A stretch of DNA of 10,164 bases from a virus (lineage: Duplodnaviria > Heunggongvirae > Uroviricota > Caudoviricetes). The stretch is from the IMG/VR virus record IMGVR_UViG_2617270946_000003, one strand, 5' to 3'. Positions 1 through 10,164 of the stretch are shown one piece after another (within the stretch, counting starts at the first letter, position 1; the number at the start of each line of letters is the position of its first letter). Both the position numbers and the translations under genes were made by a program. Below the pieces are notes generated by a model. That model did no database searches. It had not been told where the DNA came from and saw only the letters and a list, made by a program, of their open reading frames with translations.

Positions 1-76
1 CCTCACAGTTTATCCCGCCATATTCGTTGCTGGCTGCATTTCGTACTGCAAGAATCTCTTTTCCCTTATCCACCAT
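1..76 (-). CDS. Partial ORF immediately downstream of the tail fibre gene (3' end beyond window edge); function unknown, by position possibly a tail fibre assembly/chaperone gene
   Basis: On the minus strand the fibre stop TAG (87..85) is followed directly by AGGAGG (84..79) and ATG (76..74), with in-frame GTG at 73..71. It reads MVDKGKEILAVRNAASNEYGGINCE to the window edge. Not recognised as lambda Tfa. Confidence 0.35.
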   Translation of the reverse strand, partial: MVDKGKEILAVRNAASNEYGGINCE

Positions 77-84
77 GACCTCCT

Positions 85-1323
85 CTATGATATGCGCTGA
101 AATAATCCTGCCTGTCTGATACCCGGAGATGATGTCCATAGCATCGGACCACATGCACGCCACGTGCCCGGTAAACGGGTCTCCCCCACATTACCGGAAG
201 CAACCAGGGGAGTACCATCCGAAAGGCAACATGCAGACAGTGATGAGCCGGCAATGGCTGAGCCCGGTGCCATATCCCCCGAATAACTCGTCGCATAATA
301 TGCCGCAAGGACAAAAGAACCGACACCAAACAGTCCGCTGTCAGGACTTCCTGACGGTCCCTGAGGTCCTGCCGGACCTGCGGCTCCCGTATCTCCTTTT
401 GGCCCCTGAGGCCCTGCCTGACCTGCGGCTCCCGTATCCCCTTTTGGCCCCTGTGGTCCTGCCGGGCCTGCAGCTCCCGTATCTCCCTTTGGCCCCTGAG
501 GTCCTGCCGGACCTGCGGCTCCCGTATCTCCTTTTGGCCCCTGAGGTCCTGCCGGGCCTGCAGCTCCCGTATCTCCCTTTGGCCCCTGAGGTCCTGCCGG
601 ACCTGCGGCTCCCGTATCTCCTTTTGGCCCCTGAGGCCCTGCCTGACCTGCGGCTCCCGTATCCCCTTTTGGCCCCTGAGGCCCTGCCGGGCCTGCGGCT
701 CCCGTATCCCCTTTTGGCCCCTGAAGCCCTGCCGGGCCTGTATCCCCCTTGTCGCCCTTCGGTCCCAGTGGTCCGCCCGGATCGCCCTGCTCACCTTTCG
801 GACCTGTATCCCCCTTATCGCCCTTGTCACCTTTATCCCCTTTCGGCCCCGGTGGCCCTGCCGGGCCTGTATCGCCCTTGTCCCCCTTCTGTCCCTGTGG
901 ACCAGTTGCTCCGGTGTCGCCTTTCAGTCCCTGTGGCCCCACGGCAGTTTCGGCTTTCTCAGCAGCTTCTCGCGCCCTGCGCACAGCCTCATCCGCCGCC
1001 GCTTCCAGCTTCTTCAGTGCATCAGGATAATACGCTGCATCCGTTTCACGGAGCAGAAAGGCATTCAGGGTGCCCGGTTCGTCGTCGGCCATGACATCAA
1101 TCTCGCCGGCGCATGCCGGCTGACGACCTTCCACGCACAAGGTCACACGATAACGCCCCGGCTCAACCTGCATGCTGTAACTGCCCGTTTCGCCTGGCTG
1201 GTGCTCTGCCACCGTGGTGACTATCACCGTCTCACTCGTTCGCGTGGCTTTCAGCTCTATGGTGCAGTCCGGTACCGGTTTTCCTGTACCATCCTTCAGC
1301 ACACCTGAAATCTGTACTGACAT
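85..1323 (-). CDS. stf: Side tail fibre protein with collagen-like (Gly-X-Y) repeat shaft; N-terminal ~100 aa resemble the lambda Stf N-terminal domain
   Basis: 412-aa ORF with ATG at 1323..1321 preceded by a G-rich SD. N-terminus [17 protein letters not shown]...GTLNAFL resembles lambda Stf ([26 protein letters not shown]...GTLNDFL, from memory). Followed by a charged helical segment, then ~65 Gly-X-Y triplets and a ~95-aa non-repetitive C-terminus. Confidence 0.85.
359..718. repeat. Eight near-identical head-to-tail copies of a 45-bp unit (15 codons, [15 protein letters not shown]-type) inside the fibre gene
   Basis: Unit cctgaggtcctgccggacctgcggctcccgtatctccttttggcc begins at 359, 404, 449, 494, 539, 584, 629 and 674. 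Units at 359, 494 and 584 are identical, as are those at 404 and 629. More degenerate 9-bp collagen triplet repeats continue to ~942. Confidence 0.92.
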
Positions 1324-2096
1324 ATTCCCCCCACAAAAAAGCCCACCAGAACCGGCGGGCTGTCATAACTCTGTGTTACCTGGCTATGGTAGTTCACCGT
1401 CATCTGCTGACCACCAAACTGCTCCGCATCCACCTGCATCCCCACAATGGCCGTGTTCGGGTAGCACTGTTTCACATCGATGATTTCGGTGTATGACGAC
1501 CACAGCGTTCTGTTCTGCAGCTGGTCCGTGGTGCTGTCCGCCGTCTCCCTGACCATCCGGATGTTAAAGGGGCGGGGAGGCAGATTATCCAGAATCACCG
1601 AGGCCAGGAACTGTGAGGTGGTCTTGCCGTTAATGGTGACATCCTTTTCTGTCACCCAGTTACCGTTACGCTGTAACTGAATCAGCAGACGGACAGAGGA
1701 CGGATTACGGTCACCCTTTGACGTGGTCTCCACCAGTGACTGCACCCCGAAGGTCACCCGCAGGCGGTCAATGTTCGCTGACGTAATGGTGCGTGTTACC
1801 GGTTTTGCCCTGGTCACTTCGACACCCAGTACAGTTTCAGAGCCGGAGGACTCAAAGCCTTCCGGTGGTGTCTGCTCCTGCTCCCCGGCACGCCAGACCG
1901 CGGTCACACCGTGTATCACGGGATTACCGTCCGTGTCCGTCAGCGGGGTTTTGTTCACCAGAATACTCTGCAGGCTTTTCACCGGGCCTTCTATCGGTCC
2001 CTCACCAATCGCATCAATCACGCTCATCATCTGCGTGGATTTGAGATTGTCTTTCGCCTCACGAGGCGTGTGTGCCTTACCGCCACCTTTTCCCAT
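1296..2096 (-). pseudogene. J: Truncated central tail fibre / host specificity protein J: only the N-terminal ~236 codons, then ~30 unrelated codons to a stop
   Basis: MGKGGGKAHTPREAKDNLKSTQ...NIRMVRETADSTTDQLQNRTLWSSYTEIIDVKQCYPNTA matches the lambda J N-terminus (MGKGSSKGHTPREAKDNLKSTQ..., from memory) at roughly 80% identity. Similarity stops after ...QQMTVNYH (~1385). Lambda J is 1132 aa. SD GGGGAAGG precedes the ATG at 2096. Confidence 0.85.
1333..1361 (-). terminator. Hairpin plus U-tract just upstream of the fibre start codon (putative intrinsic terminator/attenuator)
   Basis: Minus-strand RNA AGCCCGCCGG-UU-CUGGUGGGCU followed by UUUUUUGU, ~10 nt before the fibre ATG. Stem includes two G-U pairs. 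Confidence 0.4.
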
Positions 2097-2194: not shown

Positions 2195-2236
2195 AAGAGA
2201 AACCCCGGTATCAGCAGATACCGGGGTTTTCTTTCA
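2195..2236. terminator. GC-rich perfect inverted repeat with U-rich flank on both strands (possible bidirectional intrinsic terminator) in the I-J spacer
   Basis: aaccccggtat (2201..2211) / cagcag loop / ataccggggtt (2218..2228): 11-bp perfect stem. Followed by ttttctttc on the plus strand and by UUUCUCUUU on the minus strand. Confidence 0.45.
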
Positions 2237-2301: not shown

Positions 2302-2329
2302 TTCACAAACTGACCGTGGCGCGTATAAT
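2302..2329 (+). promoter_or_regulatory. Sigma70-like promoter on the plus strand (antisense to the late operon)
   Basis: TTCACA (2302..2307), 16-bp spacer, perfect TATAAT (2324..2329), in an AT-rich context. Predicted start near 2336. Confidence 0.4.
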
Positions 2330-2335
2330 TTCTCT

Positions 2336-2441
2336 GCGTTAATTTTTTTGTCGTGATATAAGAATAATTCCTTACACTTAATCTTCGTAACTCTCCCGCA
2401 GTTCCTGTCCGCGATCACTGCGGGATTTTTTTATTCTTTTT
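2336..2441 (+). ncRNA. Candidate ~100-nt non-coding transcript between the predicted promoter and the plus-strand terminator
   Basis: No ATG-initiated ORF between 2336 and 2424 on the plus strand. Bounded by the promoter (2302..2329) and the terminator hairpin (2395..2424) plus T-tract. Purely a sequence-based prediction. Confidence 0.25.
2395..2441 (+). terminator. Plus-strand intrinsic terminator abutting the 3' end of gene I
   Basis: Stem cccgcag (2395..2401) / ctgcggg (2418..2424) followed by tttttttattcttttt (2426..2441). On the minus strand the A-run precedes the stem, so it is oriented for plus-strand termination only. Confidence 0.5.
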
Positions 2442-3105
2442 ACCCCTGCCGCCCGATAACCACGACCTTTCCGCCCCCGCCTTCATCACGGGTGCTGATG
2501 TCCTGGGATATACGGCGGGAGCCAACCAGCATTTCCCCGTAAGGCACCGGCATCGGGTTCCCCTGGGCAATCATGTTATCCAGCGAGGAAAAGTACGTGT
2601 TCTGTCTGCCGTTATCCGTTGCGCGGTAATCCGGTGTTTTTGCCTTCGGGGCCAGCATCTGGGCCACACCGCCCAGTATCATGCTGGCACCCAGTGAAAA
2701 CAGCATCGTGGTGGCAGAAAAACCACCGGCACTCAGGGCTGTACCCCATAACGCCATCGAGCCTCCGGCCGTGAAGAAAGAGCCCACGATGGCTGCCGCC
2801 CCCAACACAATCTGCAGTCCACCCTTTCCGGCCCCGGCCAGTCGCGGCACAATGTGGATGACCGTTCCCTCACCCAGCTGTTCGTGAAGGCGGGCGTACA
2901 CCACCTCCGGTGCCGTGTCTTCACCGGCAATACGTATCTGGTACCAGCCTTCGTTCATCTGAAGGCGAAAGCCCGGCATCTGCATCGACAGGGCGCGAAT
3001 GGCTTCCGCTGCCGTGTTCACATACAGGCTGAGGCGGCGGCCAAATCGTTGTAAATCCCCGTGGTTGCCCACGGTTGAGCCAGAGATAACAGCTTCCACC
3101 ATCAT
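2440..3105 (-). pseudogene. I: Tail assembly protein I homologue lacking its native N-terminus (first ~15 codons come from the FII/I deletion junction)
   Basis: From residue ~16 (GDLQRFGRR...) to the C-terminus (...GGKVVVIGRQG) it resembles lambda gpI (223 aa, from memory). The ATG at 3105 lies inside FII-derived sequence in another frame. Stop TAA at 2442..2440. Confidence 0.75.
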
Positions 3106-6582: not shown

Positions 6583-7735
6583 TCTTCTCCTCCTCTGTTG
6601 ATTGTCGCAGTCCGGATTCAAATGCCGCAGCCGCCCAGGCGGGCGGTTTAAGACCGGCTGCACGGCGCTCCATCGTTTCACGGACCTGCTGGGCAAAAAT
6701 TTCCTGATAGTCGTCACCGCGTTTTGCGCACTCTTTCTCGTAGGTACTCAGTCCGGCTTCTATCAGCATCACCGCTTCCTGTACTTCTTTCAGACCATCG
6801 ATGGCCATACGACCGGAGCCTATCCAGTCACAGTTCCCCCAGGCGCTGCGGGCTTCCTGAAAGCTGAAACGCGCTTTTGAAGGTAACGTCACCACGCGGC
6901 GAACGATGGCCTCTTCCAGCCAGCACAGAAACATCTGGCTCGCCTGACGGGATGCGACGAATTTTCGCCGCCCCATAAAGTACGCCCACGACTCGTTCGC
7001 ACTGGCCCGTGCCGTGGAATAGCTCATCTGGGCGTAATTCCGGGAAAGCTGCTCATACGAGACACCCAGCCCGGCAGCGATATACCGCAACAGTGACTGC
7101 TCAAACACGGAGTAGCCGTTATCCGTATCCTGAGCCGTCTGCAGGTTCAGTGAGTCACCCGGCATCAGGTGCGGCACTTTTGCGCCTCCCAGCCGAACCG
7201 GTGCTGCGGCGTAATACGCGGCAATTTCACCAATCCAGCCGGTCAGCTTGTCCCGCTGCTCCTGACTGTTCGCGCCCAGAATAAAATCCATCGCTGACTG
7301 CGTATCCAGCTCACTCTCAATGGTGGCGGCATACATCGCCTTCACAATGGCGCTCTGCAGCTGCGTGTTCTGCAGCGTGTCGAGCATCTTCATCTGCTCC
7401 ATCACGCTGTAAAACACATTTGCACCGCGGGTCTGCCCGTCCTCCACGGGTTCAAAAACGTGAATGAACGAGGCGCGCCCGCCGGGTAACTCACGGGGTA
7501 TCCATGTCCATTTCTGCGGCATCCAGCCAGGATAGCCGTCCTCGCTGACGTAATATCCCAGCGCCGCACCGCTGTCATTAATCTGCACACCGGCACGGCA
7601 GTTCCGGCTGTCGCCGGTATTGTTCGGGTTGCTGATGCGCTTCGGGCTGACCATCCGGAACTGTGTCCGGAAAAGCCACGACGGACTGGTATCCCAGGTG
7701 GCCTGAACGAACAGTTCACCGTTAAAGGCGTGCAT
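6563..7735 (-). pseudogene. B: Portal protein B lacking roughly its N-terminal 143 codons
   Basis: C-terminal ~390 aa (MHAFNGELFVQATWDTS...EEEKSDSRAA) match lambda gpB (533 aa). The A-stop to C-start distance is 1193 nt here versus 1781 nt in lambda, so 588 bp are missing. The first in-frame ATG is 7735; the track start at 7759 is TTG. Confidence 0.85.
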
Positions 7736-7778
7736 GCAGTGCCGCACGGGCAGCGGCAAGTTCTTCCTGTCGCGTCAT
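7722..7778 (-). pseudogene. W: Remnant of head-tail joining gene W: 15 conserved codons, then 3 novel codons and a stop
   Basis: ATG at 7778 overlaps the A stop (ATGA). Translation [18 protein letters not shown]-stop versus lambda W [21 protein letters not shown]... (68 aa). Confidence 0.7.
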
Positions 7779-9700
7779 TCATCCTCTCCGGATAAGGCAC
7801 GGGCGTAATCTGCCAGTGTTTTCTTGTTGGTTGCTGCACCATCCTCTTCCTTCAGGCTCGCCAGCAGTGCACTGAGATCCAGCTGCCAGCGGGAAATACT
7901 GATGCGCAGCGCCGCCAGCGCATAAACGAAGCAGTCGAGCGCCTCATTGCGTCGTTTTTTGCTGTCCCACAGTATTTTTTTCCTGCCATCCACCCATTTT
8001 TCGACCTGCTCTTCAGCCGTCAGCTGCTGCGCTTCGGTCAGATCAAAAATATCCGGGTTATTCGGGAAGTGAACGGCACCGGGAAGCGGTTCATCCCCTT
8101 CCGGCGTCAGTGTGAAGCGGTTATAAATCTGCTCTTTCGCGGTATCCGTACCGATTTCGGTAAGGTAAACCCCGTTTTTGTTTCGCTTACGTGGCATGCT
8201 GGCCACCGGCTTTCCGTAGACGGATGCCCCTTTAATGGGGATCACCCGGAACAGCCCATGTTTTTTCGAGCGTTCATACACGATGGTCGGGTCAATCCCG
8301 CCAGTATCCCAGCAGATACGGGATACCGACATTTCTGCACCATTCCGGCGGGTATAGGTTTTATTGATGGCCTCATCCACACGCAGCAGCGTCTGTTCAT
8401 CGTCGTGGCGGCCCATAATAATCTGCCGATCAATCAGCCAGCTTTCCTCACCCGGCCCCCATCCCCATACGCGCATTTCGTAGCGATCCAGCTGGGAGTC
8501 GATACCGGCGGTCAGGTAAGCCACACGGTCAGGAACGGGCGCTGAATAATGCTCTTTCCGCTCTGCCATCACTTCAGCATCCGGACGTTCGCCAATTTTC
8601 GCCTCCCACGTCTCACCGAGCGTGGTGTTTACGAAGGTTTTACGTTTTCCCGTATCCCCTTTCGTTTTCATCCAGTCTTTGACAATCTGCACCCAGGTGG
8701 TGAACGGGCTGTACGCTGTCCAGATGTGAAAGGTCACACTGTCAGGTGGCTCAATCTCTTCACCGGATGACGAAAACCAGAGAATGCCATCACGGGTCCA
8801 GATCCCGGTCTTTTCGCAGATATAACGGGCATCAGTAAAGTCCAGCTCCTGCTGGCAGATGACGCAGGCATTATGCTCGCAGAGATAAAACACGCTGGAG
8901 GGGTCATCCGGCGTCCATTTGAGGCCAAACGGCGTCTCTTTGTCGCCAAATTTAAGATACTGCTCCTCCCCGCAGTGCGGGCAGGCAACATGAAAACGCA
9001 TAAAATGCGGGGATTCACTGGCTGCACGCTCAATCTGGCAGGTGCCTCTCACTTTGGGCGTGGAGCCACGGATGGACTTTGGCCAGACCGAGCCTTCAAT
9101 ACGCTTATCGCCCAGGAACGTCGGAGAGCCTTCCTGTTCAATATCCTCATCAAAGGCAGCAAGTTCATCATAACCCGCCACATCCACTGACTTTTCACGG
9201 TAGTTTTTTGCCGCTTTACCGCCCAGGCACCAGAAGCCACGACCATTGGAAAAACGCTTCATGGTGAGCGTGTTATCCCGGTGCTTTTTGCCATACCACG
9301 GGGCCAGCGCCAGCAGCGACGGAATATCACGAATAGTCGGTTCAACGTGGGTTTTCATAAAGTTCTCGGCATCACCATCCGTCGGCAACCAGATAAGGGT
9401 GTTGCGCTGCTTATGCTCTATGAAGTAGGCATAAACACCCAGCAGCATTTTGGAATAACCAACACGGGCAGACTTCACCACATTCACCTCACGGATGTAG
9501 TCGCTGCCCATCGCATTCATGATGGCCCGCTGAAAGGGCAGTGTTTCCCAGCGCCCTTCCTGGTATGCGGATTCTTTCGGGAGATAGTAATTGGCATCCG
9601 CCCATTCAACGGCGGTCTGTGGCTCCGGCCTGAACAGTGAGCGAAGCCCGGCGCGGACAAAATGCCGCAGCCTGTTAACCTGACTGTTCGATATATTCAC
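7775..9700 (-). CDS. A: Terminase large subunit A
   Basis: 641 aa (MNISNSQVNRLRHFVRAGLRSLFRPEPQTAVEWADANYYLP...LADYARALSGEDE), near-identical to lambda gpA and the same length. The start codon at 9700 is GTG in this sequence. Overlaps Nu1 by 26 nt, as in lambda. Confidence 0.97.
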   Translation of the reverse strand: MNISNSQVNRLRHFVRAGLRSLFRPEPQTAVEWADANYYLPKESAYQEGRWETLPFQRAIMNAMGSDYIREVNVVKSARVGYSKMLLGVYAYFIEHKQRNTLIWLPTDGDAENFMKTHVEPTIRDIPSLLALAPWYGKKHRDNTLTMKRFSNGRGFWCLGGKAAKNYREKSVDVAGYDELAAFDEDIEQEGSPTFLGDKRIEGSVWPKSIRGSTPKVRGTCQIERAASESPHFMRFHVACPHCGEEQYLKFGDKETPFGLKWTPDDPSSVFYLCEHNACVICQQELDFTDARYICEKTGIWTRDGILWFSSSGEEIEPPDSVTFHIWTAYSPFTTWVQIVKDWMKTKGDTGKRKTFVNTTLGETWEAKIGERPDAEVMAERKEHYSAPVPDRVAYLTAGIDSQLDRYEMRVWGWGPGEESWLIDRQIIMGRHDDEQTLLRVDEAINKTYTRRNGAEMSVSRICWDTGGIDPTIVYERSKKHGLFRVIPIKGASVYGKPVASMPRKRNKNGVYLTEIGTDTAKEQIYNRFTLTPEGDEPLPGAVHFPNNPDIFDLTEAQQLTAEEQVEKWVDGRKKILWDSKKRRNEALDCFVYALAALRISISRWQLDLSALLASLKEEDGAATNKKTLADYARALSGEDE

Positions 9701-10164
9701 TCAGCAACCCCGGTATCAGTTCATCCAGCGCGGCTGCTTTGTTCATGGCTTTGATGATATCCCGTTTCAGGAAATCAACATGTCGGTTTTCCAGTTCCGG
9801 AAAACGCCGCTGCACCGACAGGGGGATCCCGTCGAGAATACTGGCAATTTCACCTGCGATCCGCGACAACACGAAAGTACAGAATGCGGTTTCCACCACT
9901 TCAGCGGAGTCTCTGGCATTCTTCAGTTCCTGTGCGTCGGCCTGCGCACGCGTAAGTCGATGGCGTTCGTACTCAATAGTCCCTGGCTGGAGATCTGTCT
10001 CGCTGGCCTGCCGCAGTTCTTCAACTTCCCGGCGCAGCTTTTCGTTCTCAATTTCAGCATCCCTTTCGGCATACCATTTTATGACGGCGGCAGAGTCATA
10101 AAGCACCTCATTACCCTTGCCACCGCCTCGCAGAACGGGCATTCCCTGTTCCTGCCAGTTCTGA
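9675..10164 (-). CDS. Nu1: Terminase small subunit Nu1 (5' end outside the window; ~26 N-terminal codons missing from view)
   Basis: ...QNWQEQGMPVLRGGGKGNEVLYDSAAVIKWYAERDAEIENEKLRREVEELRQASE...SEYIEQSG matches lambda Nu1 residues ~19-181. The frame stays open to the window edge. Confidence 0.93.
   Translation of the reverse strand, partial: QNWQEQGMPVLRGGGKGNEVLYDSAAVIKWYAERDAEIENEKLRREVEELRQASETDLQPGTIEYERHRLTRAQADAQELKNARDSAEVVETAFCTFVLSRIAGEIASILDGIPLSVQRRFPELENRHVDFLKRDIIKAMNKAAALDELIPGLLSEYIEQSG

Follow-up and report, generated by a model that had tools for sequence, protein, structure and literature searches.

The short J-like gene of a defective lambda-type prophage in Escherichia coli is probably a deletion scar

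Is the short J-like reading frame in this prophage sequence a gene in its own right, or is it what a deletion left of a full-length J gene? The sequence under study, referred to here as the window, is the whole stretch of 10,164 nucleotides that was analyzed. It covers late (morphogenesis) genes of a lambda-type prophage. Those that concern us here are encoded on the minus strand, and all coordinates are those of the window unless another sequence is named. A first-pass annotation of the bare sequence had proposed that J is truncated at about codon 236, with its similarity to lambda J ending in the residues NYH near position 1385, and that it is joined to a site approximately 60 bp upstream of the fibre gene. 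From there, the frame was described as running through about 30 unrelated codons and a terminator-like hairpin to a stop at position 1296. The alternative named in that annotation was a complete gene of a different family.

The features of the locus are compiled in Table 1. For comparison, we used three intact prophages located at the potB site, namely those of E. coli 23CRST047 (L011), ZH48 (L001), and 2017.17.03CC (L002), as well as phage lambda. In reverse orientation, the window is the entire contig JNRI01000098.1 of the draft assembly GCA_000704605.1 (L005). Its head region shares 97–99% DNA identity with phage lambda. The fibre gene is 94.8% identical on the DNA level to the fibre gene of L001, which likewise encodes 412 amino acids, and contains a 45-bp repeat in 8.5 copies at positions 359–740. 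The remainder of K extends to about position 3063. The length given for the I protein corresponds to the gene call in L005; measured by the annotated 223-aa I of lambda, which overlaps K, the first ~19 codons of I would lie in a deleted segment.

Table 1. Features of the window with their positions, strands, and supporting observations
Feature	Position	Strand	Description and basis
Side tail fibre gene, intact	85..1323	-	412 aa; Pfam phage_tail_N (prophage tail fibre N-terminal domain; residues 1-127) and Collagen repeats
J′ reading frame	2096-1296	-	266 aa; 237 J codons, 29 non-J codons, and a TGA stop
Out-of-context codons (29; 1385-1299) and TGA stop (1298-1296)	1296..1385	-	J frame continued through the lom-stf spacer into the fibre gene (its first 26 nt)
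Intrinsic-terminator-like hairpin of lom (1361-1340) with T-run	1334..1361	-	Now within the J′ frame; terminator scan, centroid fold
Deletion breakpoint (J/lom junction)	1385..1386	-	2-nt TA microhomology between the J site and the site just past the lom stop; three-way alignment of window, J side, and lom side
J-derived part of the truncated gene	1386..2096	-	Codons 1-237 of J (tip attachment/central tail fibre protein); DNA and protein alignment
pasB sRNA gene homologue	2302..2432	+	Promoter-like site 2302-2329, terminator ~2394-2432; antisense to late genes; outside the scar, in the retained I-J island
Tail assembly protein I gene	2440..3021	-	Pfam Lambda_tail_I; 193-aa form as annotated in relatives; collinear with L002 7438-8061 and L011
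FII/K junction	3061..3063	-	FII, up to codon ~110, runs into the 3′ end of K; loss of 6,965 bp relative to L011; 3-nt overlap
W/B junction	7733..7736	-	B, from codon ~143, directly follows W nt 46; loss of 589 bp; CATG microhomology
Nu1 (partial), A, 46-nt W stub fused to B from ~codon 143, C, D, E, FI, FII to ~codon 110		-	Order of the genes in the head region
Last 45 nt of K, I, 343-bp gap, J′ (2096-1296), fibre gene, start of DUF4376 gene		-	Order of the genes following FII

To establish the identity of the reading frame, we aligned its product, designated J′, with full-length J proteins. Residues 1–237 of J′ aligned without gaps to residues 1–237 of lambda J and were identical at 79% of the positions. 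The intact, 1128-aa J protein of E. coli 2017.17.03CC matched in 234 of the 237 residues. On the DNA level, positions 2096–1382 were 97.9% and 98.5% identical to the 5′ 715 nt of the intact J genes of L001 and L002, respectively. The BLAST matches that underlie the mapping of J′ and the junction had E values of 0, that is, they are beyond chance similarity. The last three J-derived codons, 235–237, encode the N-Y-H motif, with the His237 codon CAT at 1388–1386. Consistent with these boundaries, the lambda gpJ chains in the PDB matched residues 1–238 of J′ (E = 1e-123). A Pfam search revealed FNIII-A_GpJ (PF24801) as the sole match in J′, covering residues 86–207 (E = 3.8e-41). Thus, J′ possesses the N-terminal homology typical of the gpJ family, including the FNIII-A domain. 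The intact J of L002 gave six more Pfam matches: Phage-tail_3, Ig_J, Ig_J_second, Phage_Tail_Tip, the C-terminal receptor-binding Ig_GpJ_C, and a marginal Y_Y_Y match overlapping Ig_J. Of the complete gpJ domain set, which spans ~1130 aa, J′ therefore lacks the Phage-tail_3 hub, the two Ig-like domains, the tail-tip fibre, and the C-terminal receptor-binding domain. Judged by its sequence, J′ is a 5′ fragment, and hence a pseudogene, of J that does not qualify as a functional gpJ; it is presumably without function.

Immediately past His237, the DNA becomes the native lom-stf intergenic spacer, which is entered 1–3 nt beyond the position of the lom stop. A base-by-base three-way alignment showed that TA (1386–1385) is the only exact sequence common to both parents at the crossover. 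Starting from this dinucleotide, positions 1386–1 are 94.8% identical to positions 8001–9385 of L001, and the match begins 2 nt past the lom stop codon (L001 7997–7999). The breakpoint is located 62 nt upstream of the fibre start codon (ATG, 1323–1321). The stretch between the two is the lom-stf spacer and almost invariant among the window, L001, L002, L011, and lambda. The J′ frame traverses this spacer and terminates at a TGA 26 nt within the fibre ORF, so that both the terminator of lom and the ribosome-binding site of the fibre gene have come to lie inside the J′ frame as a result of the deletion. Alignment to lambda J and to the lom-stf region, which the first-pass annotation had suggested as a check, thus placed the end of J within one codon of the earlier estimate, namely after His237, confirmed the distance to the fibre gene as 62 nt, and returned 29 codons for the unrelated stretch.

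The hairpin noted in the first-pass annotation is indeed present in the tail of J′, but the join did not create it: this is the terminator of lom, native and conserved, which also occurs in lambda. According to the terminator scan, the hairpin at 1361–1340 comprises 9 pairs (6 of them G-C) and a loop of 4 nt and is followed by TTTTTT. A G+C-rich hairpin with a T-run is found at the same position in intact phages, and we regard the element as a predicted terminator. It is kept in lambda, L001, L002, and L011; the stem of L011 is a perfect complement, whereas the others contain a G-T pair. The region 1400–1300 as a whole was no more stable than shuffled sequence (z = +0.48), and the local terminator hairpin is the only meaningful fold within it.

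What is missing at the J/lom junction comprises J from codon 238 to its end (~890–920 codons) and the entire lom gene, together ~3.35 kb. The precise length of 3,348 bp applies relative to L001 only, in which both flanking parts are collinear. When the window was searched by tblastn with the proteins of lambda and L002, we detected no J residues past 237 and no Z, U, V, G, H, M, L, K, or W. Likewise, neither lambda Lom nor L002 Lom had a match in the window, and no lom ORF is present between J and the fibre gene. The earlier statement that the remaining ~900 codons of J and lom are absent was therefore correct.

Alignment of the window to L011 yielded three collinear blocks and thereby exposed the deletions at the W/B and FII/K junctions. 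The FII/K deletion removed Z, U, V, G, T, H, M, L, and most of K, and tblastn detected FII only up to residue 110. At the W/B junction, the portal gene B has lost its first ~143 codons, in agreement with a tblastn match that starts only at residue 144. The alignments revealed neither extra nucleotides nor IS remnants at any of the three junctions, which rules out IS-mediated deletion. The first-pass annotation had concluded that the junctions together leave a side fibre but no central fibre or tail. The alignments bear this out and extend it, because the W/B deletion cuts into the portal, so that the head module is defective as well. According to its gene content, the element is devoid of a tail, a working central fibre, and a complete portal, while its side-fibre ORF is intact; the fibre would thus have nothing to attach to. 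Having lost W, the N-terminus of the portal, all of the tail, and the tail tip, the element presumably cannot make particles, and because the portal N-terminus, the tail genes, and J are missing, no infectious particles are expected.

We consider it very probable that the J-like gene is the scar of a single ~3.35-kb deletion in a lambda-like E. coli prophage. The ancestral order would have been I, the gap containing pasB, J (~1130 codons), lom, a 64-nt spacer with a terminator, and the side-fibre gene. This order is still intact beside potB in related strains. Illegitimate, homology-independent recombination within the prophage would then have joined J after codon 237 to a site 1–3 nt past the lom stop. 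The resulting J′ would start at the native J start codon and comprise 237 genuine J residues followed by 29 meaningless codons that run through the terminator and the ribosome-binding site of the fibre gene. From what is generally known about such joins, the connection was most plausibly made by microhomology-mediated end joining or by illegitimate recombination of the topoisomerase type, although 2 nt of microhomology cannot by itself reveal the mechanism of a deletion. Simple replication slippage is less likely because 3.3 kb would have been bridged with only 2 nt of homology. The W/B and FII/K deletions would be further steps of a stepwise erosion, which in a sub-lineage (L003 and L004, see below) would have included a fourth deletion; this order of events we infer. 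No evidence contradicting an internal deletion was found. The process is ordinary prophage decay, a known phenomenon, and does not give rise to a new kind of gene.

A join of the same appearance could also result from illegitimate recombination between two lambdoid prophages, with the J side derived from one and the fibre side from the other. In fact, the best matches to the two sides belong to different prophages (L002 with 98.5% for the J side and L001 with 94.8% for the fibre side). In E. coli genomes, the number of places matching the region has a median of 2 and a maximum of 18, and locus L004 of a sister strain shows at least one rearrangement of it. However, both parts are collinear in single prophages, and mosaicism alone accounts for the differing best matches. 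Further information came from the sister locus L003, whose chromosomal flank (potB, potA, pepT, roxA, phoQ, and phoP) is 99.8% identical to that of E. coli 23CRST047, which identifies the host as E. coli. The element in L003 sits beside potB, as do L001, L002, and L011. In L011, the complete prophage reads Nu1 through FII, Z to K, I, gap, J, lom, fibre gene, ykgJ-like gene, and potB. L003 shares its right end (fibre, DUF4376, ykgJ-like gene, and potB) with L001, L002, and L011, and it also shares the I-gap-J left side with prophages at the potB site. These observations argue against two separate parents, and we consider an inter-prophage join very improbable. With the site shown through L003, the element is collinear with an intact prophage at the same position but has lost essential morphogenesis genes, which is what characterizes a defective lambdoid prophage.

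The retained gap between I and J deserves separate attention. It contains a promoter-to-terminator module, the promoter-like site of which is near-consensus (TTCACA, 16 nt, TATAAT) according to the promoter scan, while the terminator scan and the predicted fold revealed a hairpin with a U-tract ending at position 2432. The module is kept in many Stx1 and Stx2 phages with 70–94% identity; of 107 phage records with a match, only 13 contain the half of the gap that lies nearer to J. In enteropathogenic E. coli (EPEC) E2348/69, PasB has been described as an Hfq-dependent sRNA, and its coordinates as well as a Northern probe are given in Table S6 of PMC8550237 (Pearl Mizrahi et al., 2021). PasB of E2348/69 is encoded on the minus strand (NC_011601 1466343–1466261) between I, which ends at 1466255, and gpJ, which starts at 1466496. 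The module in the window occupies the same position between I and J in the same orientation and aligns with PasB, with the −10 box and the terminator being conserved, and 20 of the 23 nucleotides of the Northern probe are identical. Hence, the location between I and J, the opposite strand, the sequence including the probe site, and the terminator hairpin with its U-tract all correspond to PasB, and on these grounds we assign the module as a homologue of this known sRNA. The assignment came through the literature and not through Rfam: at E ≤ 1, the Rfam search of the entire window turned up only a spurious mir-214 and no PasB. According to a preprint, pasB often sits where nearby phage genes have degraded (bioRxiv 10.64898/2026.05.13.724894), and the window provides an example of pasB surviving amid degraded phage genes in line with that report. 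The PasB homologue is the one item of wider relevance at this locus and is incidental to the deletion scar.

The position of pasB raises the possibility that selection, and not chance, has kept the I-pasB-J′ island and the fibre gene. In this scenario, the island would be retained for PasB or for J′ acting as a decoy that poisons the tail-tip assembly of superinfecting lambdoid phages, and the fibre gene for a benefit to the host. The PasB homologue, with its promoter-like site and terminator intact, lies in a 1.68-kb island between two deletions, PasB is an abundant, Hfq-dependent sRNA in EPEC (PMC8550237), and pasB is reportedly often found outside recognizable prophage regions (bioRxiv 10.64898/2026.05.13.724894). 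Moreover, the J′ and fibre ORFs are unbroken in all seven loci known to carry the junction. Yet the survival of the pasB locus is statistically unremarkable because ~48% of the ancestral late region, from Nu1 to the fibre gene, remains, so that the same could be expected of any 100-bp locus. The seven loci are near-identical and consequently provide no signal of selection, and J′ ends in 29 nonsense codons. We therefore regard selective retention as even more doubtful than an inter-prophage join. The same low estimate applies to its most specific form, a host-useful island in which PasB would be a domesticated Hfq-dependent regulator and J′, translated from its native start, a dominant-negative decoy against lambdoid tail-tip assembly.

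To return to the deletion itself, the same 266-aa ORF and the exact 71-nt junction string were recovered from six NCBI draft assemblies and from an independent Logan assembly of SRR1186490. Across the FII/K and J/lom junctions, a stretch of 2.2 kb showed 100% identity in five of the six other loci and a single base change in L007. In the remainder of the element, the other loci carried 2 to 21 SNPs relative to the window. The fibre proteins were 397, 412, or 442 aa long, and one more fibre ORF was cut off at a contig end. Since the junction is identical in seven assemblies with differing SNPs and fibre lengths, we conclude that it is real and has been inherited in one lineage. An assembly artefact, that is, a chimeric contig joined at a short repeat, might be suspected from the fact that the window is a whole 10,164-bp contig of a short-read draft, the ends of which lie in repeated prophage sequence. 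This is highly improbable, as the six NCBI genomes and the Logan data set were assembled separately and differ in contig ends and fibre repeat numbers, and as the 2 nt common to both sides of the join are far too short to mislead an assembler.

Two of the loci, L003 and L004, carry the fourth deletion, which connects the region downstream of a methyltransferase gene with the final 62 codons of E. Erosion thus appears to have gone on after the junction arose. A megablast comparison of positions 1–2500 yielded no match across the junction, either in the 5,426 complete E. coli genomes or in the 50,697 phage records searched. Exact-match scans with a junction 31-mer and a 22-mer gave no match in GTDB representative genomes, and the 22-mer had none in JGI metagenomes. 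The junction sequence is so far lineage-specific and may serve as a lineage marker.

That the 266-aa ORF is instead complete and belongs to a separate family of short J-like genes, as the first-pass annotation had allowed for, is suggested by its proper start, its one complete Pfam domain (FNIII-A_GpJ), and its stop codon, but can be dismissed because its first 711 nt share 98–98.5% identity with the 5′ portion of 3.39-kb J genes before identity is abruptly lost, because its last 29 codons are non-coding lom-stf spacer including the terminator hairpin and the ribosome-binding site of the next gene, and because the junction is absent from the complete E. coli genomes, GTDB representatives, and JGI metagenomes searched. 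Accordingly, the ORF at 2096–1296 should be annotated as a J pseudogene (5′ fragment) and not as a hypothetical protein or "tail fibre".

Phage lambda (NC_001416) has the same gene order, with J at 15505–18903, lom at 18965–19585, and orf-401/stf from 19650, and its lom-stf spacer, which contains the terminator hairpin and the ribosome-binding site of the fibre gene, hardly differs from that of the window. Compared with lambda, the window lacks J codons 238–1132 and lom. Its fibre is of the collagen-repeat type and only 55% identical to lambda Stf, over the N-terminal 117 residues only, and the gap between I and J measures 343 bp instead of ~60 bp. The closest counterparts are the potB-site prophages L011, L001, and L002, which occupy the same site (as deduced via L003) and display the same order, Nu1...FII...K-I-pasB-J-lom-fibre-DUF4376, with 95–99% DNA identity. 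They are complete, whereas three microhomology junctions in the window mark losses of 589 bp, 6,965 bp, and ~3,348 bp.

Side-fibre genes that outlast the other late genes are familiar from E. coli K-12. Its cryptic prophages Rac, Qin, and e14 are defective lambdoid remnants eroded by deletions, in which side-fibre genes (stfR/tfaR, stfQ, and stfE, respectively) survive among truncated late genes after the loss of most structural genes. These prophages have been reduced much further, with IS elements interrupting them in part, whereas the element described here keeps most of its head genes and has three clean, IS-free junctions.

Tail-less elements that make their own capsids are known as capsid-forming phage-inducible chromosomal islands (cf-PICIs). 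The presence of head and packaging genes and the absence of tail genes give the window a superficial likeness to them. Unlike in a cf-PICI, however, the capsid module is not intact: the portal is devoid of residues 1–143, W is reduced to 46 nt, and FII is cut at ~codon 110. The truncated portal and FII rule out a cf-PICI-like tail-less satellite. In addition, the genes of the window are 97–99% identical to those of ordinary lambda-type prophages and bear deletion scars. By these features, the element is a broken phage rather than a satellite and should be called a defective prophage; the scar as a whole matters little beyond annotation. Its three IS-free junctions, each with 2–4 nt of microhomology, and the fourth deletion in the sub-lineage nevertheless constitute a tidy, datable case of stepwise erosion in one E. 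coli lineage.

The gene block upstream of the truncated J ORF was interrupted at two further junctions (see table below). At the W/B junction, which bears a CATG microhomology, the resulting W-B fusion is out of frame. The portal gene B is left without its N-terminal ~143 codons, and the head module is therefore defective as well. The FII/K deletion, measured against the intact prophage of E. coli 23CRST047 (L011), removed Z, U, V, G, T, H, M, L, and most of K. Here the FII frame extends into the I gene, giving a chimeric ORF of 156 aa (3391-2921).

A fourth deletion was found in two of the sister draft assemblies that share the J/lom junction (L003, 2802-4065; L004, 1-1264), where sequence downstream of a methyltransferase gene now abuts the last 62 codons of E. 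The right flanks of these assemblies part just past a ykgJ-like gene (from 9082 onwards in L003 and from 6366 onwards in L004). The L003 flank runs into potB-potA-pepT, and that of L004 continues with an integrase gene and, beyond it, genes bearing the Pfam domains Form_Nir_trans, MlaA, and Toluene_X, a region that we take to resemble the argW/CPS-53 region of K-12. This divergence points to a rearrangement of the chromosome where the prophage ends. The window itself is a whole draft contig, and the DUF4376-gene and Nu1 sequences at its ends are repeated among lambdoid prophages. Because the contig stops within repeated prophage sequence, our view is confined to the window; the flanks and any second copy of J or lom in this genome lie outside it.

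Coordinates of junctions, repeats, and signals in the window
Feature	Position	Strand	Description
Contig end	1-84		5' end of DUF4376 gene
Contig end	10143-10164		inside Nu1
45-bp repeat	359-740	-	8.5 copies within fibre gene (85-1323); codes collagen-like Gly-X-Y repeats
13-bp hairpin, strong	about 2196-2232		GAGAAACCCCGGTATCAGCAGATACCGGGGTTTTC; within J-proximal gap module
pasB promoter-like site	2302-2329	+	near-consensus
FII/K junction	3061-3063		6,965-bp deletion vs L011; FII codon ~110 to last 45 nt of K
W/B junction	7733-7736		589-bp deletion; W nt 46 joined to codon ~143 of portal gene B

Complete fibre ORFs of the sister strains encode 397, 412, and 442 aa, that is, they differ in 15-aa steps corresponding to one repeat unit. 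These length differences reflect either real variation in repeat number or collapse of the repeat during short-read assembly.

The I-J intergenic gap harbors a homologue of PasB, a known Hfq-dependent sRNA of prophages (2302-2432, plus strand), complete with a terminator hairpin and U-tract. PasB of EPEC E2348/69 occupies the same position and orientation, and the published Northern probe matches the window at 20 of its 23 nt. An Rfam scan of the window returned no match for it, and most of the phage records listed carry no annotation there. The J-proximal half of the gap (2097-2272) is a module separate from the pasB half; only 13 of the 107 phage records with the pasB half also possess it. 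Its hairpin looks like a bidirectional terminator.
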